A stretch of 64,000 nt of DNA from a phage: sequence record PZ445437.1. One strand, 5' to 3'. The position numbers and the translations under genes were made by a program. Each line of letters opens with the position of its first letter. The stretch's first letter is position 1. The notes under the pieces are model-generated. The model did no database searches. It was not told the DNA's origin and was given only the letters and a program-made list of their open reading frames with translations. Positions 2,180-59,499 of the stretch are shown here, piece after piece.

Positions 2180-2235
2180 CGTTTTTCCTTTTTGTTAACA
2201 GATGAATTAATAATAACAAATAATTCTTAAAGCAT

Positions 2236-2544
2236 TTATTTACCAATAAATTGAAGCAAATGCTCAACTTTCATACCATTAACAGAAATCAATTTGTCAA
2301 TAGAAAAACCTCGCCATGCACCAAGCTCAACATCAAACACTGGAATCATGTCAGTAGATTCTTTCCGAGTAGATTCAGTCAATTTACCAGTTTGCATGGT
2401 TGGCATAAAGTCTGCATCACGAGTACCTTTCATAGTACGAATAGTACCATCAGACTTTTCAAAAACTACGTTTGAAACACCCATGGACAATTTAGTTTTC
2501 AAAATTTCACGAATTGCTACTTTCTGCTCAGTTGTCAGTTTCAT
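2236..2544 (-). CDS. hypothetical protein (102 aa)
   Basis: ORF track; between cd and 31. Confidence 0.6.
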   Translation of the reverse strand: MKLTTEQKVAIREILKTKLSMGVSNVVFEKSDGTIRTMKGTRDADFMPTMQTGKLTESTRKESTDMIPVFDVELGAWRGFSIDKLISVNGMKVEHLLQFIGK

Positions 2545-2781
2545 TTATTTACCTATTACAGTTTTAATATGAGTTGTTCCACGTTCTTTAAGGGTGGAAA
2601 GTAATTTTTGGCATTTTTCTAAATCAGATTTCCAACTATATGGTCTATCAATACTAGTCCAATCAGTTTTATAATACTGTTTCCATTTAGAGAAAAAATA
2701 TTTCTTATACTCTACAGCAAATGAGATGTTCTCGTTAGAATAAGAACTAATTGCTGTGAGCTTTACCAAACGAAATTTCAT
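2545..2781 (-). CDS. hypothetical protein (78 aa)
   Basis: ORF track; abuts cd stop. Confidence 0.55.
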   Translation of the reverse strand: MKFRLVKLTAISSYSNENISFAVEYKKYFFSKWKQYYKTDWTSIDRPYSWKSDLEKCQKLLSTLKERGTTHIKTVIGK

Positions 2782-3362
2782 TATTCACCACAGAATTCGT
2801 TGATATTTTCCCAGTTTAACTTATTCAAGTTTTTCTTGGGAACATTAAACACTTCAATACCTGCATTTCGCAGAATATCATCCCAGCCAGGTTTATTTTT
2901 ATCATATGTTTCGCAATAAACCAGCTTTTTAATACCAGATTGAGCTATCGCTTTTGCGCAATCTGGACAAGGAGAAAGTGTTACATACATAGTAGCACCT
3001 TCAATAGAAGAACCATTTCGTGCAGCAAACAAAATTGCATTTAGTTCAGCATGAATTTCATTTTTAGACGACCATTCAGAGTGAGCGCTACGGTGTTCTT
3101 TCGCCAAGACAAAGCGATCAGTTGAACCAAATGATACGCATTCAGGCTTATGGCCTTGGATGATAGTATGTTTAGGTTTATTCAGCAACCAACCTTGCTC
3201 AGCGGCATAATCACAACAGTTCACACCTCCTGCGGGTGAACCGTTATACCCAGTAGAAATAATACGTCCATTCTTTTCAATTACTGCTCCTACCTTCCAG
3301 GAGCAACATTTTGATTCTTGTGATACTAAATATGCAATTTGAAGTACTGTACTCGCTTTCAT
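2781..3362 (-). CDS. cd: dCMP deaminase (193 aa)
   Basis: HAE...PCPDC zinc-binding deaminase motifs; length equals T4 Cd. Confidence 0.9.
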   Translation of the reverse strand: MKASTVLQIAYLVSQESKCCSWKVGAVIEKNGRIISTGYNGSPAGGVNCCDYAAEQGWLLNKPKHTIIQGHKPECVSFGSTDRFVLAKEHRSAHSEWSSKNEIHAELNAILFAARNGSSIEGATMYVTLSPCPDCAKAIAQSGIKKLVYCETYDKNKPGWDDILRNAGIEVFNVPKKNLNKLNWENINEFCGE

Positions 3363-16817: not shown

Positions 16818-17120
16818 TTATTTTTGAATTTTATCGAGCCACTTACCAAGCTTAATCATTTCTTTAGTAGCCTTTTCCATACTTCTGAACTTAACCAATA
16901 GAGGATAGGTATCGACACCCATAACTAAACTGGTTACAAGACTGTGTTCACCCACAAGCCATAACGAATACGTTTGAATATCGAGCCCGTAATTTCTGTC
17001 TTTGTGGACCCGTACACCCATCACTTCAAATTTCTCACTAGCTTTTTCTACCGCATTCAGGAAATCATCTTTAGTCATATTAGGCCTTAAAAGTTTTTCG
17101 CAAAAGTTCAATGATTTCAT
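16818..17120 (-). CDS. hypothetical protein (100 aa)
   Basis: ORF track. Confidence 0.55.
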   Translation of the reverse strand: MKSLNFCEKLLRPNMTKDDFLNAVEKASEKFEVMGVRVHKDRNYGLDIQTYSLWLVGEHSLVTSLVMGVDTYPLLVKFRSMEKATKEMIKLGKWLDKIQK

Positions 17121-17460
17121 CTACATTGTTTTCGTCAACAATACAGTGAATTTTTGTTACGCCAGAAACCTTGTCTTTGACTTCATCTTTTTCAGAAGTC
17201 GGTTCTTTATACTCACGAAAACAATGAAATTCGTCTTCGCAAATTTCTAAAAGTCTATCTTTGAGGTAAAAATGCTTTCCATTTGCGCATTCAATGTGTT
17301 TTACTGCTTTATATCCATTAGCGACGGAAACTTCTTTAACTTCAAACCATCCGCCATTATCTCGAATCGCTTTAACTATTGATGAATTAGAACGTGGGCT
17401 ATAATTAATAAATGTATCAATAAGTCTTGGAACAAGCTCATACTTTTTACCGGTATACAT
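17080..17460 (-). CDS. hypothetical protein (126 aa)
   Basis: ORF track. Confidence 0.55.
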   Translation of the reverse strand: MYTGKKYELVPRLIDTFINYSPRSNSSIVKAIRDNGGWFEVKEVSVANGYKAVKHIECANGKHFYLKDRLLEICEDEFHCFREYKEPTSEKDEVKDKVSGVTKIHCIVDENNVDEIIELLRKTFKA

Positions 17461-17504
17461 TACGTTTTCCTCATTTTAATAGGGGCTTAATAGCCCCTTG
17501 ATAA

Positions 17505-17732
17505 TTATTGTTCAATCAGTCCCATGTAAAATTCTGCGTCTTCGGCATCCATGCCATCACAATATTCATTAGCCATAAAGCGGGTGAGGTCTTCAAGAGG
17601 ACCTTCAATAACGATTTGAATACTCCAAAACTTAGAATCTTGCACGCTTGTGATACTAAGTTCAGGATAACGATTACGAATAATTTCTTCGATATATTCA
17701 AAATCAACGATGTCAATATCAACTTTAGCCAT
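17505..17732 (-). CDS. hypothetical acidic protein (75 aa; tracked ORF extends to 17795)
   Basis: Internal Met MAKVDIDIV preceded by AAGAGGAAAATAAT; the upstream part of the tracked ORF overlaps the promoter. Confidence 0.5.
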
Positions 17733-17764
17733 ATTATTTTCCTCTTTAATCATCAGCAGTATTG

Positions 17765-17815
17765 CCGATAGTTGTATAGTACCATGGAAGGACAAGGATG
17801 TAAACCGTTTTGTGA
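17765..17815 (-). promoter_or_regulatory. T4-type early promoter
   Basis: Member of the repeated gtaaac...tatagtacca family; minus-sense GTTTAC then -10. Confidence 0.45.
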
Positions 17816-17830
17816 AAAAATTTTTGAAAT

Positions 17831-17856
17831 AAAAAAGGGGACCCTAGAGGTCCCCA
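17831..17856 (-). terminator. rho-independent terminator after gene 32
   Basis: GGGGACC-TCTA-GGGTCCCC hairpin followed by TTTTTT in minus sense. Confidence 0.7.
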
Positions 17857-17877
17857 ATTAATTAGTAATATAATCTA

Positions 17878-18783
17878 TTAAAGGTCATTCAAAAGGTCAT
17901 CTAGGTCCGTGTCATCAGCACTAGATGAACTGCCAGAGCTTGAGCTCATAAAATCATCTTCAGTTTTTGTATTGAAGTCATCAACATTGAATGCATCCAA
18001 ATCATCAGCAACTTTATCAGCTTTCTTAGCAGCAGTTGCAGCGGCACCGCCCATCACAGCAGTTCCCATGACTTGACCGAATTTAGTGCTCAGTTCTTCA
18101 AACGATTTGAATTTATCTTTAGAAGTCATTTCAGAAAGGTCAACCATTTGTTCGAACAGTTCTTTCTGGAAAGATTCATCGTCAATGTTTGGAATCGCAG
18201 ATTGATTTAGGAATTTAGATTCATCGTAGTTACTAAATCCAGAAACCTGTTTAACTTTCAGTACAAAGTTAGCACCTTCCCACGGACAAGTTACATCAAC
18301 TGGAGTTTCACCCATTTCAACATCAACCGCAATCATCGCGTTGATTTTATCCCAGATTTTCTTACCGAAACGATATTTAAATACTTTACCTTCATTTTCT
18401 GGAGCAGCTGGGTCTTTTACAACAAGAATATTAGCCCAGTAAGAAGTTTTACGTTTAACAAGACTGTACTCTTTATTGTCAGTGTTGTACAGATCATTTT
18501 TACTGATGTACTGACATACTGGGCAAGAATCGTAATCACCGTGGGTAGATGAACATGTTTCAATATACCATTTACCATTTTTCTTGAAACCGTGATTTAC
18601 AAGAATTGCGAATGGTGCTTGTTCATCATTTTTAGACGGAAGAAAACGAATTACTGCTTGACCGTTACCCGCATTATCGAGTTTCAGTTTCCACTCGCCT
18701 TTATCTTCAGAAGAAAAACCTTTATTGCCATTCAGTTTAGCCATTTGTGCAGCAAGTTCAGCAGTAGATTTACGTTTAAACAT
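17878..18783 (-). CDS. 32: single-stranded DNA-binding protein gp32 (301 aa)
   Basis: Protein [23 protein letters not shown]... with zinc-site cysteines and acidic C-terminal tail; recognised as T4 gp32. Confidence 0.95.
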
Positions 18784-27472: not shown

Positions 27473-30400
27473 ATGGCTACTTTAAAACAAATACAATTTA
27501 AAAGAAGCAAAACCGCAGGTGCACGTCCTGCTGCTTCAGTATTAGCCGAAGGTGAATTGGCTATAAACTTAAAAGATAGAACAATTTTTACTAAAGATGA
27601 TACAGGAAATATCATTGATCTAGGTATTGCTAAAGGCGGTCAAATTGATGGAAATGTAACTATTGATGGAACTTTACGCGTCAATGGACCAATAAACAAC
27701 TTTGGAAATTTTTCTACAAGTGGTACTATTACGGCAAGTAATATTGTTTCTGCTACAGTATTCAGATCAACATCTGGTTCATTTTATACAAGAGCAATAA
27801 ATGATACTGCAAATGCCCATCTTTGGTTTGAAAATACAAATGGCTCAGAACGTGGCGTTTTATATTCAAAACCGCAGTCTGAAAATGAAGGCGTAATTAC
27901 AATGCGTGTTCGTCAAGGAACCGCTGCGGGAGCTCAAAATTCAGAATTTCATTTCATTTCTACTGATGGCGGTATCTTCCAGGCACGCAAGCTAACTGCT
28001 TTAACTTCTATTAGTACACCAACTATTAGTGTTAATTTAATTAATCATGATTCTAAATCATTTGGACAATACGATTCACAGTCTTTGGTTAACTATGTTT
28101 ATCCTGGAACCGGTGAAACAAATGGTGTAAACTATCTTCGTAAAGTTCGCGCTAAGTCCGGTGGTACAATTTATCATGAAATTGTTACTGCCCAAACAGG
28201 CCTGGCTGATGAAGTTTCTTGGTGGACTGGTAATACACCATTATTTAAACTATACGGTATTCGTAACGACGGCAGAATGATTATCCGCAATAGCTTGGCC
28301 ATTGGTACTGTGACGCAAGGGTTTCCGTCAAGCGATTATGGCAATGTTGGGGCACTAGGAAATATATTTCTTGCTTTAGGTGATAATGGAACTGGTCTAG
28401 TTTATAGAAAAACCGGGGTATTTGATTTCGTTGGTTCTGGTTTATCTTTGGCATCTATTACTCCTGATAGTTTCCGTAGTACCCGTAAAGCGATTTTTGG
28501 TCGTTCCGAGGACCAAGGTACAACATGGATTATGCCTGGAACGAACGCTGCATTTTTATCAGTTCAAACACAAGCTGATACTAACACTGCTGGCGACGGC
28601 CAGACGCATATTGGCTATAACTCAGGCGGAAAAATGAACCACTATTTCCGTGGTAAAGGCAAAACTAATATTAATACCCAAGAAGGCATGGAAGTTAACC
28701 CGGGTATTCTTAAACTAGTGACTGGCTCTAATAATGTAATGTTTTATGCTGATGGCGGTATTACATCTGTTAAGCAGCTTTCAATATATAACGGCATATA
28801 TTTAGCAGCTAATAATTCTACTGCTGGGCTAACATTCGCTCCAACTACTACAGTTGATGGCACTAAGCAAATTTTGTGGGAAGGTGGTACTCGTGCTGGG
28901 CAGAATAAAAGCTATGTAACTGTTAAAGCATGGGGTAATTCATTTAACGCATCTGGCGATCGTTCCCGTGAAACGGTTTTTGAAGTATCAGATGGGCAAG
29001 GTTACCATTTTTATTCTCAGCGAGTTGCTCCCGGATCAGGTTCTACTGTCGGACCTATTCAATTTCGAGTTAATGGTGGTTTATTAACTTCAGGTAGTAT
29101 TGTTGCTTCTGGTTCTATTACAACTGAATCTTCTTTAAATGTTAATAATGGATTGTCTGTAAATGGACAAGCTAAATTTGGTGGAACAGCAAACGCATTG
29201 AGAATTTGGAACGCCGAATATGGCGCTATTTTCCGTCGTTCAGAAAGTAATTTTTATATTATTCCAACCAATCAAAATGAAGGCGAAAGTGGAGACATTC
29301 ACAGCTCTTTAAGACCTGTGAGAATAGGATTAAGCGATGGCATGGTTGGGTTAGGAAGAGATTCTTTTATAGTAGATCAAAATAATGCTTTAACTACTAT
29401 AAACAGTAACTCTCGCATTAATGCCAACTTTAGAATGCAATTGGGGAAGTCGACATATATTGATGCAGAATGCACTGATGCCGTTAGACCCGCAGGGGCT
29501 GGTTCATTTGCTTCGCAAAATAATGAAAACGTCCGTGCTCCGTTCTATATGAATATTAATCGCACAGATACAAGTACTTACGTTCCAATTGTTAAACAGA
29601 GATACGTACAAAATAATAGTTGCTATTCTATTGGTACTTTAATTAATGGCGGTAATTTTAGAGTTCATTATCATGAAGGTGGTGATGGCGGTTCTACTGG
29701 CGCGATTATAAAGGATTTAGGTTGGGAATTTAATAAAAATGGTGATTTTTACTCTCCTGGTAAATTAGGTGCTGGAAATATTCGTATCGGAACAGACGGT
29801 AATATCACGGGTGGTTCTGGTAATTTTGCTAACTTGAATACCACATTAAACCGTAAGGTCAATTCCGGATTTGTAACATACGGTGCAACTGCTGGATGGT
29901 ATAAATTCGCTACAGTAACGATGCCACAATCTACTTCTACTGTTTCATTTACTATAACTGGTGGTAAAGGATTTAATACCGGACTGTTTACACAGTGTGC
30001 TATAACAGAAATTGTTCTTCGTACTGGCAATGACCGCCCAGCAGGTTTAAACGCCGTGATGTATACCAGAACAGCTGCAGGTCTTACTGATATTGCTGTA
30101 GTTAATACCTCAGGAAATACATATGATATCTATGTTGAATCGGGTACTTATGCCAACCAATTAGCTTATACTTGGCATACAGTTGATAATGCTACCGTAG
30201 AAGTTATCGGCGCTTTTGGTCCTACTCAAAACCCAGTAGATTCTTTGCCGGTTGATTATGTTAAAGGTCAAGTAGCTAACATGCTTAACAACCTGGTAGA
30301 CACTGGTAAAGTAAAACGCTATGTAGCAGAGTCGGAAATTGCTATTAATAACCCAACTGGTATTCGTATTACGAGTAATTCTGATAGATCAGGTTCTAAT

Positions 30401-31411
30401 TCCGTTTTATTTCGAAATGACGGTGGAAGCTTCTATATTTTACTGACCGACAAAAACTCTTCAGACGGCGATAATAAAGCAACTGAAGGTGATTGGAATG
30501 GAAAACGACCATTTTCAATTGATATGACTGCTGGTACTGTTCGTCTTGGCGAAAATACTTCTTTTGGTAAAGATGTTACTATTGATGGAAGCATTAATTC
30601 ACGAGTTAAAGTTGTCGGACAGTGGAATGTTAGCTTTTCTGATATTTCAGATGTGACTCGTGACCGTTCTGCATTTTTAGTGAATACGGGTGGCATTTCC
30701 AAGACAAGTCAATCTTATTACCCGCTATTTTCTGGATACAGTTTTTTAACTGACGCAGGTTATCGACAATCGTTTGAATTTGGATGGTTAGGTGTTTCTG
30801 GTACTTGGCGTCAAGGCATTATTCGCATGCGTGGTGACAACCCATCGGGGCAACAGGCTCGTTGGACTTTTGATATGGACGGAACATTTTATGCTCCTAT
30901 ACTATCATGCGGATCTGCGAGAGCATTCGGTGTCAATGCATCAAATGGTCTCGGTGGAAACAGTATAACATTTGGTGATAGCGATACTGGTATTAAGCAA
31001 AATGGCGATGGATTATTAGACATATATGCGAACAGCGTACAAGTGTTCCGTTTCCAAAACGGTGATTTGTACTCATACAAAAATATAAATGCTCCAAACG
31101 TTTATATTCGTTCTGATATTCGTTTAAAATCCAACTTCAAACCTATCGAAAATGCACTTGATAAAGTTGAAAAACTTAACGGTGTCATTTACGATAAAGC
31201 TGAATACATCGGTGGAGAGGCAATTGAAACTGAAGCTGGTATTATAGCTCAAACGTTACAAGACGTTTTACCAGAAGCTGTCCGTGAAACAGAAGACAGT
31301 AAGGGTAATAAAATACTCACTGTTTCTTCTCAAGCCCAGATTGCTCTTCTAGTTGAAGCTGTGAAAACACTTTCTTCTCGTGTAAAAGAACTTGAATCTA
31401 AACTTATGTAA
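27473..31411 (+). CDS. 37: long tail fibre distal subunit gp37, T2-type (1312 aa) with C-terminal chaperone-like domain
   Basis: Conserved N-terminus [13 protein letters not shown]; longer than T4 gp37; C-terminal about 110 aa ([27 protein letters not shown]...) resembles intramolecular-chaperone/self-cleaving domains. Confidence 0.9.
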
Positions 31412-31432
31412 AGGAGGGCTTCGGCCCTCTAA
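31412..31432 (+). other. GC hairpin between genes 37 and 38
   Basis: GAGGGC-TTCG-GCCCTC immediately after gp37 stop; weak T-run. Confidence 0.35.
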
Positions 31433-31441
31433 GGATTTTTA

Positions 31442-32233
31442 ATGGCAATTGTAGGTGTTCCTGGCTGGATTGGTGAATCTGCCGTGAATGAAACTGGACA
31501 ACGCTGGATGGACGCTGCGATGAAAGCTGTTCGTGTTTCAGTTCCCGGTTGGATGAGTTCAATGGCTGGGCAATCTAAAGAAGTATATTATAGCGTTGGT
31601 GCTAGCAATTCTTACAATAAAGACACACTAATAAATTGGATAAAAGCCCAAGGCAGTACTCCTGTTGTTATTACTATTACAGGAAATATTGTTTCTCAAT
31701 CTACTGGTGTTCCATGCTTAGATTTTCCTAGCTCATTAACTAATGCATATGTTACCTTAAATATTAATAGTGGGGTTCATGTATTAGGTCGGGGAGGAAA
31801 TGGCGGAAGTAACTCTGCTGGCGGAGCAGGAGGAACTGCAATAAATAACGGAATTGGAACTCGTTTAAGAATAAACAATAATGGTATTATTGGTGGCGGC
31901 GGAGGTGGCGGCGCTGGTGCTAGATACCATCCTTTCCCTCAAATGGATATGATATTTGGTGGCGGCGGAGGTCGTCCATTTGGCGCAGCTGGCGCAGCAG
32001 GAGGTGGCGCAGCGGCAGCATCCGCTGGTACAATTTCTGCTCCTGGTAAAGGTACTGTTTCTGGGGTTCACTATGGAGGAAATGGTGGAGATTTGGGAGC
32101 TGCTGGCAAATCTTCATATATTAAAGGTGGTACTGGAGGAACTGTTCACTCGGGTGGTGCAGCAGGTAAAGCTGTTACTGGTAATGCTCCAACTTGGACT
32201 AAAGTTGGCACAATATATGGTTCAAGAGTATAA
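31442..32233 (+). CDS. 38: receptor-recognising adhesin gp38, T2-type (263 aa) with glycine-rich motifs
   Basis: N-terminus MAIVGVPGWIG; several poly-Gly tracts (GGGGGGGAG, FGGGGGRPFGAAGAAGGG) bracketing short variable segments. Confidence 0.85.
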   Translation: MAIVGVPGWIGESAVNETGQRWMDAAMKAVRVSVPGWMSSMAGQSKEVYYSVGASNSYNKDTLINWIKAQGSTPVVITITGNIVSQSTGVPCLDFPSSLTNAYVTLNINSGVHVLGRGGNGGSNSAGGAGGTAINNGIGTRLRINNNGIIGGGGGGGAGARYHPFPQMDMIFGGGGGRPFGAAGAAGGGAAAASAGTISAPGKGTVSGVHYGGNGGDLGAAGKSSYIKGGTGGTVHSGGAAGKAVTGNAPTWTKVGTIYGSRV

Positions 32234-32265
32234 TTTTTGAATAAATATCCTTAAAAGGAGGGTCT

Positions 32266-32922
32266 ATGGCAGCACCTAGAATATCATTTTCGCCCTCTGA
32301 TATTCTATTTGGTGTTCTAGATCGCTTGTTCAAAGATAACGCTACCGGGAAGGTTCTTGCCTCCCGGGTAGCTGTCGTAATTCTTTTATTTATGATGGCG
32401 ATTGTTTGGTATAGGGGAGATAGTTTCTTTGAGTACTATAAGCAATCAAAGTATGAAACATACAGTGAAATTATTGAAAAGGAAAGAAATGCACGCTTTG
32501 AATCTGTCGCCCTGGAACAACTCCAGATAGTTCATATATCATCTGAGGCAGACTTTAGTGCGGTGTATTCTTTCCGCCCTAAAAACTTAAACTATTTTGT
32601 TGATATTATAGCATATGAAGGAAGATTACCTTCAACAATAACTGAAAAATCACTTGGAGGATATCCTGTTGATAAAACTATGGATGAATATACAGTTCAT
32701 TTAAATGGACGTCATTATTATTCCAATTCAAAATTTGCTTTTTTACCAACTAAAAAGCCTACTCCCGAAATAAACTACATGTACAGTTGTCCATATTTCA
32801 ATTTGGATAATATCTATGCTGGAACAATAACCATGTACTGGTATAGAAATGATCATATAAGTAATGACCGCCTTGAATCAATATGTGCTCAGGCGGCCAG
32901 AATATTAGGAAGGGCTAAATAA
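32266..32922 (+). CDS. t: holin T (218 aa)
   Basis: 218 aa; single N-proximal TM segment then large periplasmic domain; follows gene 38 as in T4. Confidence 0.9.
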   Translation: MAAPRISFSPSDILFGVLDRLFKDNATGKVLASRVAVVILLFMMAIVWYRGDSFFEYYKQSKYETYSEIIEKERNARFESVALEQLQIVHISSEADFSAVYSFRPKNLNYFVDIIAYEGRLPSTITEKSLGGYPVDKTMDEYTVHLNGRHYYSNSKFAFLPTKKPTPEINYMYSCPYFNLDNIYAGTITMYWYRNDHISNDRLESICAQAARILGRAK

Positions 32923-56782: not shown

Positions 56783-56790
56783 ATTTATAT
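56783..56790 (-). promoter_or_regulatory. late promoter TATAAATA for soc
   Basis: Minus-sense TATAAATA about 33 nt upstream of soc ATG. Confidence 0.5.
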
Positions 56791-56934
56791 CAGTCTTCAA
56801 TGAAAACTTGTGCCAGGAATTCGTGTTCATCTTGAATTTGTTTATATAAAGCCATTACAGCATTTATATTAGAGCTATCTACTTTAAGTTGATAGGCATA
56901 CCACTCGTGTAAATTAATTAAAGCTTTTTGTCGT

Positions 56935-57159
56935 CTAATAAATTCTTCTTTGGATATTTTCATTTGAATGCTCTATAATTAATTTTAAGGCTTCTTTACT
57001 GACAAAAATTTCATCAAGACCTTCTTCTACACCCCAATCAACTGCACGAAGCTGATTAGATAAGAGCTCGTATGTGAGCTCTTTGTCATAATTTTTAAAT
57101 AGCTGGTCAATACGTTTCTTGTGGGCTTTCTTAAGCTGGCGTTTATTTAAACGAGCCAT
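56935..57159 (-). CDS. hypothetical basic protein (74 aa)
   Basis: ORF track. Confidence 0.5.
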   Translation of the reverse strand: MARLNKRQLKKAHKKRIDQLFKNYDKELTYELLSNQLRAVDWGVEEGLDEIFVSKEALKLIIEHSNENIQRRIY

Positions 57160-57677
57160 TAATAACCTCGGTCTTGACGAGCGAAGTTTTCAGCATTTTT
57201 CAAATAATAAAGTTTAAAGATTTCTTCAGCCGTAAGACCGAGACCTTGGAACATGTTCAGAACGAAATGAAGAATATCAATCATTTCGAATTTAATTTCC
57301 AACTGGTCTTGTGGAGACAAATCAGTAATCAGAGTTTCACGTCGTTCACCATGTTGAGCTTTCCAAGGCTTCCATACAGCAGATGCATCTTTTTCACCAT
57401 TGCTCATACCACCAAGAGAAGTCAATAGTTCGCGGAATTCATCATCAATATAATCTTTCTGATTACGCAACCAATCAACAACTTCGCCTGCGGTAGCCAA
57501 ATCATCAGGATGACGGTTATATTCAGGTTTATCTTTAGCTAAACGAACCTGAAGAGATTTCTGCATATCAAGCATAACTTGCAGCGGGTCTTTTTCATCA
57601 CCGAGAATATCCCAGTATTCATTTTGAGCTTTATCAGCGCCTTCAATCAGTTGTGAACATTCATTAAAGTATGCCAT
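57159..57677 (-). CDS. 56: dCTPase/dCDPase gp56 (172 aa)
   Basis: MazG-like pyrophosphatase; start placed at MAYFNECSQL; length as T4 gp56. Confidence 0.82.
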   Translation of the reverse strand: MAYFNECSQLIEGADKAQNEYWDILGDEKDPLQVMLDMQKSLQVRLAKDKPEYNRHPDDLATAGEVVDWLRNQKDYIDDEFRELLTSLGGMSNGEKDASAVWKPWKAQHGERRETLITDLSPQDQLEIKFEMIDILHFVLNMFQGLGLTAEEIFKLYYLKNAENFARQDRGY

Positions 57678-57748
57678 TATTTTTCCTTTCAATTCATGGG
57701 TTAGTAGATTAATTATACAATAAATATATAAAGCAATAAGGAGGACAT

Positions 57749-57949
57749 ATGGTACAAAAATTAATGGCACTTGTTAATGCCATAAAAGGTAATAAAAAAC
57801 GTATAGCTTTTACTATTTCTGCTACGGTAGGAATTTTACTCTGGAATTTTGTTTTATCACCAATTGCTATTGCTCATGGTGTTAATATTCCAGTAATTAC
57901 TCTTGATACATTCGTAGATTTATCATTTGCTTTGGTTGGGTTAATTTAA
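57749..57949 (+). CDS. small hydrophobic protein (66 aa) on opposite strand
   Basis: ORF track; AGGAGG SD 5 nt upstream of ATG; stop overlaps gene 61 stop. Confidence 0.4.
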   Translation: MVQKLMALVNAIKGNKKRIAFTISATVGILLWNFVLSPIAIAHGVNIPVITLDTFVDLSFALVGLI

Positions 57950-58974
57950 ATCTTAGCATATTTAGATAGCCGCATTTTAGCCATCAACCCTTGGGCAATA
58001 TTATTTTTCATATATTCCATAATTTGTTCAGGGGTTGCACCTTCCTTTCTAATCATATCATTAACATCTTTTGATTTCCAGGGAGATTTGTCCCAAAACA
58101 TAACCCTTTCTCCTGCATCAACCAATTTAGTCATTCGTTTAATAGTGTCAGGATGACGAGGTTCATTATCTAAAACCCATACACGTCTATCTTTAAATGG
58201 AACAATTTCTAGGTCTAATTGACCACCCGTAATAGCTATACCATTTTCAATAAAAAGTGAATCTATAGGTCCTTCTAGAACATATACATCACCATCTTTG
58301 ACTCGTTCGACTCCATAGATTTTTGTTGCCTCAGGATAAGCTTTGATGGTGATATATTTTTGAGGAGCATCTTTCTTTAATGCACGTCCTTGAAAAGACT
58401 CAGCTTTTCCATTAGCATTATAAATTGGAATAACAAGACGAGGCTCAGAAATTTCCTTTTTGTATGTTCCCGGTGCTATGCTATTAACTAATTTAGGCCA
58501 TTCGGTTGTAAACCAAAGATATTTCCATTTATCCTTTGGAATACAACGAGCTTTTACATATTTTATAATTGGATGGTCTTCCGCCAGTTTATCTAATCTA
58601 ACACATGACGGAAGAGATTTAATTATTTTCTTCTCAGGTTGCTTAGGAAGTTCTTTAGGTTTTTCTACTGGACGACTTTTACCTTTTTCTTTTCTTATTT
58701 CAAAGATATACTCACGATATAAATCAGGTTCAAACTCCTTTAAATATATTCCGATTGGTGCATGATAATTACAGTTATAACAATGAATATTTCCTTCATT
58801 ATTATCACCATAATACCATCCACGAGCTTTATTCTGGTCGGTTTTTGAATCTCCACAAACAGGACATCTAAACCGCAATTTAAAAGTTGAACTATTATTT
58901 ACTTGTGTGAATTTAGGTAAATGAGCTAATGCACGGTATGCAAACTCATTATCAATCCAAGGTATTGATGACAT
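57946..58974 (-). CDS. 61: DNA primase gp61 (342 aa)
   Basis: N-terminal zinc ribbon CPVC...CYNC and TOPRIM EGPIDSL; 342 aa as T4 gp61. Confidence 0.92.
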   Translation of the reverse strand: MSSIPWIDNEFAYRALAHLPKFTQVNNSSTFKLRFRCPVCGDSKTDQNKARGWYYGDNNEGNIHCYNCNYHAPIGIYLKEFEPDLYREYIFEIRKEKGKSRPVEKPKELPKQPEKKIIKSLPSCVRLDKLAEDHPIIKYVKARCIPKDKWKYLWFTTEWPKLVNSIAPGTYKKEISEPRLVIPIYNANGKAESFQGRALKKDAPQKYITIKAYPEATKIYGVERVKDGDVYVLEGPIDSLFIENGIAITGGQLDLEIVPFKDRRVWVLDNEPRHPDTIKRMTKLVDAGERVMFWDKSPWKSKDVNDMIRKEGATPEQIMEYMKNNIAQGLMAKMRLSKYAKI

Positions 58975-59142: not shown

Positions 59143-59499
59143 TTAACCTCTATTCATAAAAGCATTAAAAATTTGGTCATCAATAGATGGTGCAGTAATA
59201 TTTTCTGCATCATTTAGCAAATCATTAATTTCATCAGATAGCATAACACATGTACCTTTATTTCCTGTAATTGTTACTGCGCAATTACGAACGTTTTCTT
59301 TATTAAATTTTAGGTTAATATTTTCGTAATGAAAATCCTTTAATGCCGAATATATCTTTAAAATGAAATTGTCTTTTACTACAATAAACCCAACCTCACT
59401 ATTAAAACGTGGTTCATGGAAACTGTAATAAACCTTTTCATCTATAAAATCGTATGAAATTTTTTCCATTTTTAAATATGAAAATTCAGAACTATACAT
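59143..59499 (-). CDS. hypothetical protein (118 aa)
   Basis: ORF track. Confidence 0.55.
   Translation of the reverse strand: MYSSEFSYLKMEKISYDFIDEKVYYSFHEPRFNSEVGFIVVKDNFILKIYSALKDFHYENINLKFNKENVRNCAVTITGNKGTCVMLSDEINDLLNDAENITAPSIDDQIFNAFMNRG

Follow-up and report, generated by a model that had tools for sequence, protein, structure and literature searches.

Does the junction between genes 56 and 61 of this phage, where dam is missing and a small open reading frame lies on the opposite strand, depart from what is usual among T-even phages, and is the small frame a gene? We examined these questions in a 64-kb window, the whole stretch of DNA that was analyzed, which is a segment of a T4-like (Tequatrovirus) genome. 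A first-pass annotation made from the sequence alone had pointed to both features as unusual. We think it probable that the junction is the common dam-less form of an interval that is polymorphic among T-even phages, and that the small frame, here called ORF66, is a fixed component of this interval and most likely a genuine late gene.

Layout of the interval between genes 56 and 61

The interval spans 57678–57945 and measures 268 bp, in keeping with the ~270 bp estimated previously. The features of the junction are as follows.

57159–57677, minus strand: gene 56, dCTPase/dUTPase of 172 aa (phrog_173, E = 1.1e-46; Pfam dUTPase_2)
57712–57737, minus strand: MotA-type middle-promoter-like site for gene 56 (sequence match only)
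57719–57726, plus strand: late-promoter-like box AATAAATA, an A(−13) variant of TATAAATA, 22 nt 5' of the ATG of ORF66
57739–57744, plus strand: Shine-Dalgarno sequence AGGAGG, 4 nt 5' of the ATG of ORF66 (AGGAG(G) in all lineages)
57749–57949, plus strand: ORF66, 66 aa (phrog_2024, RB32ORF030w, RB69ORF029w; PHROGs, tblastn and AF2)
57764–57783, minus strand: weak terminator-like hairpin ATGGCATT-AACA-AGTGCCAT followed by TAATTTTTG, in ORF66 codons 6–12 on the primase-sense strand
57946–58974, minus strand: gene 61, DNA primase of 342 aa (phrog_47, E = 1.3e-106)

The boundaries of gene 56 are those of the annotated CDS in phage teqskov. A longer gene 56 ORF that starts with GTG is an artefact, and the true ATG gives a product beginning with MAYFNEC; its PHROGs match, phrog_173, is annotated as an NTP pyrophosphohydrolase. 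Phage PinkRuby has a primase that matches the product of gene 61 at 100% identity. The neighbors of ORF66 are genes of replication and nucleotide metabolism.

The first-pass annotation had described a hydrophobic, 66-aa ORF on the plus strand, with a stop codon that overlaps the stop of the primase gene in convergent orientation. Both points are borne out. The ORF has a GRAVY score of 1.17, and its TAA (57947–57949) overlaps the TAA of the primase gene (57948–57946, minus strand) inside the palindrome TTAA (57946–57949). The same annotation had reported a near-perfect Shine-Dalgarno sequence 5 nt before the ATG; the AGGAGG is there and is perfect, but the spacing is 4 nt. As this spacing is the only point that differed, the original observation was accurate in all but one detail.

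Distribution of ORF66

ORF66 belongs to a catalogued family. It matches phrog_2024 with an E value of 1.4e-30 (105.9 bits), residues 2–66 aligning to positions 1–65 of a profile of 65 positions. Searches with tblastn found ORF66 in 692 phage records, 687 of which match over at least 80% of its full length, with identities of 86–100% in 502 Tequatrovirus records and of ~50% in the 190 others. Among the matches listed, ORF66 adjoins the primase gene, and in the relatives examined the family copies sit between genes 56 and 61, in the reverse orientation to these two genes. The copy in teqskov is 100% identical to that in the window. In phages RB14 and vB_SsoM_113 the gene carries the name RB32ORF030w and is noted to be "similar to RB69ORF029w". 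Membership in phrog_2024, presence in this many records and the names carried over from RB32 and RB69 together make the 66-aa ORF a conserved named gene, against the earlier view of it as unusual.

The genera holding ORF66 are Tequatrovirus, Mosigvirus, Gaprivervirus and Jiaodavirus. Its diversity was drawn from GenBank phage records, as a scan of IMG/VR gave only seven loci. Homologues compared to the window copy include the following.

Mosigvirus phiC120: 65 aa, 49% identity
Gaprivervirus TH40 and Yersinia phage P8: 65 aa, 48–54% identity
Jiaodavirus ValerieMcCarty05: 63 aa, 29% identity
Klebsiella phage Clarke_MM3: 66 aa, 20% identity

Two loci show other arrangements. In vB_YenM_P8, an insertion at 2209–3047 of the locus separates the ORF66 homologue from the primase gene; it carries a homing endonuclease gene and a 33-aa ORF mislabelled "DNA packaging ATPase", and the stop-to-stop overlap is lost while the small ORF is intact. 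Karamvirus vB_EclM_AS6 lacks an opposite-strand ORF between genes 61 and 56 and has a same-strand ORF of 94 aa instead (2523–2807 of the locus).

T4 itself holds an intact ORF66 at 17738–17938 on the plus strand, full length and with 91% amino acid identity by tblastn. It is located in an unannotated gap of 309 bp between dam and gene 61, with GATAAATA (17709–17716) and AGGAGG upstream. The ORF is without annotation in NC_000866 and AF158101, and in MT984581, a re-sequenced T4, the primase is the sole product given at this place. The gene order in T2 is 56, dam, a 181-aa ORF, ORF66 and 61, and in RB14 it is 56, RB32ORF030w and 61. Hence the ORF does not mark a dam-less junction, since T4 has it between dam and gene 61. 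Judged from these gene orders, ORF66 is no substitute for dam and occurs with and without it.

Beyond its own family, ORF66 has few relatives in databases. Scans of Pfam and NCBIfam at E ≤ 10 gave nothing useful, and a profile search against 1.84 billion representatives returned only seven hits, all of them members of the ORF66 family or noise. With Foldseek against BFVD, E ≤ 0.001 was reached only by a member of the same family. Weak BFVD matches (E values of 0.08–0.17) were to two proteins of 63 aa, one of which is from the T4-like Enterobacter phage vB_EclM_CIP9.

Evidence for ORF66 as a probable coding gene

Across five genus-level lineages the frame of ORF66 is open and encodes 63–66 aa. 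Within Tequatrovirus, dN/dS is 0.2–0.36, values that derive from small counts of 5–7 synonymous and 3–7 nonsynonymous differences per pair. Between genera, synonymous sites are saturated (pS of 0.68–0.79) versus a pN of 0.32–0.38, and the frame is still open. Six residues are invariant (W32, N33, P38, G44, P48 and G64), position 53 is always acidic, and these motifs are kept in copies with as little as 20–29% identity. The pattern of substitutions suggests that ORF66 is a real gene under purifying selection. A literature search, which covered sources other than the start-site table of a T4 dRNA-seq study, returned no mention of ORF66, nor any mapped transcript start, footprint of ribosomes or peptide assigned to it. 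That dRNA-seq study gives 150 phage start sites, of which 22 are antisense.

Promoter-like signals around ORF66

In six of six lineages, the heptamer ATAAATA is present 15–22 nt 5' of the ATG and is followed by AGGAG(G), with flanks that have fully diverged. The upstream box in Clarke_MM3 is a perfect TATAAATA. Within the window ATAAATA is depleted, with 15 copies versus 36 ± 6.5 expected from shuffles. The sites include 21702+, 26769+, 32241+ and 56788−, and several closely precede the late genes 34, 36, t and soc. The variant found before ORF66, AATAAATA, also precedes gene t in the window at a similar distance to the ATG. ORF66 thus has what is expected of gp55-dependent late genes, a TATAAATA-type box ~6 nt upstream of the presumed transcript start and near a Shine-Dalgarno sequence. 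We infer that RNA polymerase with gp55 would initiate at the AATAAATA box, that the transcript would start at ~57732, and that its 17-nt leader bearing AGGAGG would direct translation of the 66-aa protein.

The strength of this candidate promoter is another matter. The base at −13 is never T in Tequatrovirus copies, being A in the type found in the window and G in T4 and T2, and because the canonical T is missing throughout, the promoter of ORF66 may be weak. Published T4 late promoters comprise 50 sites, of which 32 are perfect and nine have an A at −13 (PMC2988020). A or T is frequent at −13 in other T4-like phages (PMC1524935).

On the opposite strand, a middle-promoter-like site precedes gene 56. 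It consists of a mot box, ATTGCTTTA, at 57737..57729, a spacer of 11 nt and a −10 element, TATAAT, at 57717..57712. It occupies the position that P(M)16.53, the promoter of the oriA primer, has in T4, and X01416 annotates the T4 counterpart as a mot box and −10 element upstream of gene 69/56. The 71-bp spacer between gene 56 and ORF66 therefore holds both promoter-like signals, the late box being located within the 11-nt spacer of the middle promoter. The late box keeps its register with ORF66 despite a change of setting: in the window it is in the spacer of the gene 56 promoter, and in T4 it is beside the putative dam promoter P(E)17.40. No plus-strand intrinsic-terminator-like site was found in the 3.9 kb downstream of ORF66, and a late transcript would consequently continue antisense into gene 61.

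An alternative reading is that ORF66 is untranslated and that the 200 bp are kept as nucleic-acid signals, whether as the 3' UTR and terminator of gene 61, as minus-strand promoters of dam or gene 56, or as the 5' part of a late antisense RNA that silences primase mRNA. The terminator-like hairpin inside ORF66, which is on the primase-sense strand, would fit the first of these, but it is confined to Tequatrovirus and absent from other genera; it therefore cannot explain the conservation of ORF66 and was rejected as its cause. The minus-strand middle-promoter-like site in the spacer would fit the second. The third is consistent with the missing plus-strand terminator, which makes any late transcript antisense to gene 61, and with the transcription of some T4 sites on both strands (PMC2988020), but an antisense role could coexist with coding. 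That the curated T4 reference annotation leaves out ORF66 also fits a region that is not translated. On the other side, the frame, the length of 63–66 aa, the Shine-Dalgarno sequence and the invariant residues persist where synonymous sites are saturated. Moreover, the ORF of YenP8 is intact although a homing endonuclease gene parts it from gene 61. We consider it improbable that the region is conserved for nucleic-acid signals only.

Predicted product of ORF66 and its possible role

If ORF66 is a translated late gene, as we favor, its product is predicted to be a small membrane protein. AlphaFold2 (AF2), run with a shallow alignment of eight sequences (mean pLDDT of 76), predicted helices at residues 2–12, 16–42 and 52–62. 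The best 19-residue hydropathy window, residues 23–41, scores 1.87. Net charge is +5 in the N-terminal flank and −2 in the C-terminal flank, and the copies in Mosigvirus and P8 likewise have +5 and −2; the asymmetry is weaker in two copies from Klebsiella phages. On the basis of these flank charges and the positive-inside rule, the N terminus is predicted to face inward and the C terminus outward. The product is thus predicted to be a single-pass protein of the inner membrane, in which the Lys/Arg-rich residues 1–18 would be cytoplasmic, one helix at approximately residues 19–42 would cross the membrane, and an acidic tail of ~24 residues would be on the periplasmic side. A conserved motif, W-N-[FLY]-x4-P-x5-G-x3-P-x4-[DE], would extend over the outer end of the helix into the beginning of the tail.

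The features of the predicted protein could also be those of a second holin or an antiholin-type lysis protein. In favor are the small size of ORF66 and its single predicted transmembrane helix, the name "Holin" that UniProt gives to the copy in vB_EcoM_OE5505, and the AATAAATA box of ORF66, which is the same variant, at similar spacing, as that before the holin gene t in the window. The UniProt label, however, looks like an unsupported automatic name, and no holin family of Pfam or NCBIfam was matched, even at the permissive threshold used. The C terminus of ORF66 is hydrophobic and acidic (net −2), whereas holins typically end in a charged, basic tail. Its location is away from the genes of the endolysin, the spanin and t, and the phage already has holin T (start at 32266). 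A holin or antiholin function is for these reasons unlikely.

For the preferred reading of ORF66 as a late coding gene, the best guess is that the product is an accessory factor that acts on the envelope late in infection and would influence lysis timing or envelope integrity. We put forward only tentatively the fuller proposal that ORF66 is a functional late gene missing from the T4 annotation, with a product in the inner membrane that has a specific role at the envelope, for instance in the timing or inhibition of lysis or in the exclusion of superinfecting phages, and with an unterminated transcript that might also be antisense to primase mRNA.

Absence of dam and its presence in relatives

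The first-pass annotation placed dam of T4 between gene 56 and the primase gene. This is confirmed, with T4 dam at 16846–17625. It is also correct that dam is missing from the junction under study; the interval measures only 268 bp, and tblastn with T4 Dam identified no homologue in the 64-kb window (best E = 2.3). For a search at the scale of a whole genome, teqskov served as proxy. Its complete genome, joined from five pieces, is 165,017 bp; its identity to the window is 92–98% overall and 99.9% at the junction. No Dam homologue was found in it with the same query (best E = 0.82), and its annotation has no product carrying a methyltransferase name. A crude scan for the catalytic motif [DNS]PP[YFW] identified no plausible methyltransferase candidates in the window or in teqskov. 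The window is 64 kb of a ~166-kb genome and Dam homologues are placed elsewhere in other T4-like genera (e.g., beside denV in an Aeromonas phage), but a dam gene that was relocated, or replaced by another adenine methyltransferase, elsewhere in the genome is highly improbable considering that neither the window nor teqskov has a Dam match, that teqskov has no product named as a methyltransferase, and that dam is in the 56–61 interval in all four of the fetched Tequatrovirus loci that have it.

The first-pass annotation regarded the absence of dam as a peculiarity, and this is contradicted by its distribution. T4-type Dam at ≥90% identity is present in ~182 phage records, versus ~502 records with ORF66 at ≥80% identity, which mark the Tequatrovirus set (both by tblastn). 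In 14 of 18 fetched loci there is no dam between genes 56 and 61, including seven of seven loci from outside Tequatrovirus. The only carriers among the 18 are T4, T2 and two IMG/VR contigs. Dam-less loci of Tequatrovirus type are those of RB14, teqskov, vB_SsoM_113 and three IMG/VR contigs, and those outside the genus belong to Mosigvirus, Gaprivervirus-type, Jiaodavirus, Karamvirus and Clarke_MM3 phages. The order 56-ORF-61 without dam is found in RB14, phiC120, YenP8, TH40, ValerieMcCarty05 and Clarke_MM3. From the record counts and the fetched loci, most junctions are dam-less, and this is also how the interval is organized outside Tequatrovirus. A count of 352 records with ≥80% coverage was dropped as a measure of dam-less junctions in favor of the tblastn counts of Dam, because pieces up to 1 kb apart had been joined and dam-containing genomes may have entered the count.

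By these comparisons of sequence, dam is an optional cassette, with T4 and T2 among its carriers. The phage does differ from T4 by the absence of dam, and this part of the initial interpretation stands. The remainder does not, as neither the arrangement nor the ORF is unusual; junction and ORF66 are common and already catalogued in the annotations of RB69, RB32 and RB14 and in PHROGs. What is new is the evidence for a conserved gene of a small predicted membrane protein, probably late, that is unannotated in T4.

The interval has at least three forms: without dam, with dam alone, and with dam and an extra ORF. The third is that of T2-type genomes, in which the additional 181-aa ORF between dam and ORF66 (1365–1910 of the T2 locus) is mislabelled "head outer capsid protein". 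We propose that the optional cassette, made up of dam and its upstream promoter region, to which the T2 type adds one more ORF, lies between gene 56 and a fixed ORF66. In dam and dam-less forms alike, ORF66 would abut the 3' end of the primase gene from the opposite strand.

Significance for the window itself is small. The arrangement is the usual dam-less one, most relatives likewise do without this accessory gene, and the absence of dam mainly predicts that there is no phage-directed GATC methylation. Of more general relevance, the T4 reference omits a small ORF that is under purifying selection in at least four genera and that has a conserved late-promoter core and Shine-Dalgarno sequence. 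Adding ORF66 to the genes listed for T4, a virus studied more closely than most, would close a small gap and correct the misnames "holin" and "head morphogenesis protein". There would be a modest upside if ORF66 acts in the envelope of the cell late in infection or in antisense control of primase.

Neighboring differences and annotations

The same early region has other differences from T4. Between soc and gene 56 (56790–57159, minus strand), the window has two small ORFs of 57 and 74 aa, whereas in T4 this place is taken by segF, a homing endonuclease gene; the 74-aa ORF is annotated as soc.2 in relatives. Downstream of 61.1 (59143–59499, minus strand), an RB32ORF033c-type ORF of 118 aa replaces T4 gene 61.2 (208 aa), which is a further difference in presence and absence. 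Relative to teqskov, the closest catalogued relative, the window is a mosaic with identities of 81–98% by segment and several gaps, e.g., 27661–32241, the distal tail-fibre region.

Many small early genes in the teqskov RefSeq record and in T2 AP018813 have what appear to be wrong names carried over from other records, among them "molybdenum ABC transporter" for homologues of modA.2-4 and "major capsid domain-containing protein" for 61.1. In some entries ORF66 is labelled "putative head morphogenesis protein", a name that looks unsupported.

Comparison with known systems

The T4 antiholin RI and the spanin subunit PseT.3 are small type II (N-in) envelope proteins. The predicted ORF66 protein differs from them in that its periplasmic part would be only ~24 residues, and searches found no sequence similarity to any named family. 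By analogy, it would resemble them in having a short, cytoplasmic or signal-like N terminus, one transmembrane helix, a C-terminal part in the periplasm, and late or lysis-related expression.

The T4 late genes t, soc, 34 and 36, which have gp55-dependent promoters of the TATAAATA type, are like ORF66 in that an ATAAATA core is followed by a strong Shine-Dalgarno sequence.

The 56-dam-61 interval of T4 has genes 56 and 61 and an ORF66 that are orthologous to those of the window. Of the two, only T4 has a further ~0.88 kb, which comprises dam and, upstream of it, the stretch that bears the putative P(E)17.40, and which is located between the middle promoter of gene 56 and the promoter and Shine-Dalgarno region of ORF66.

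RB32ORF030w and RB69ORF029w (phrog_2024) share with ORF66 their position, their orientation on the opposite strand and the overlap of their stop codon with that of the primase gene, and they are without substantive difference from the gene in the window.
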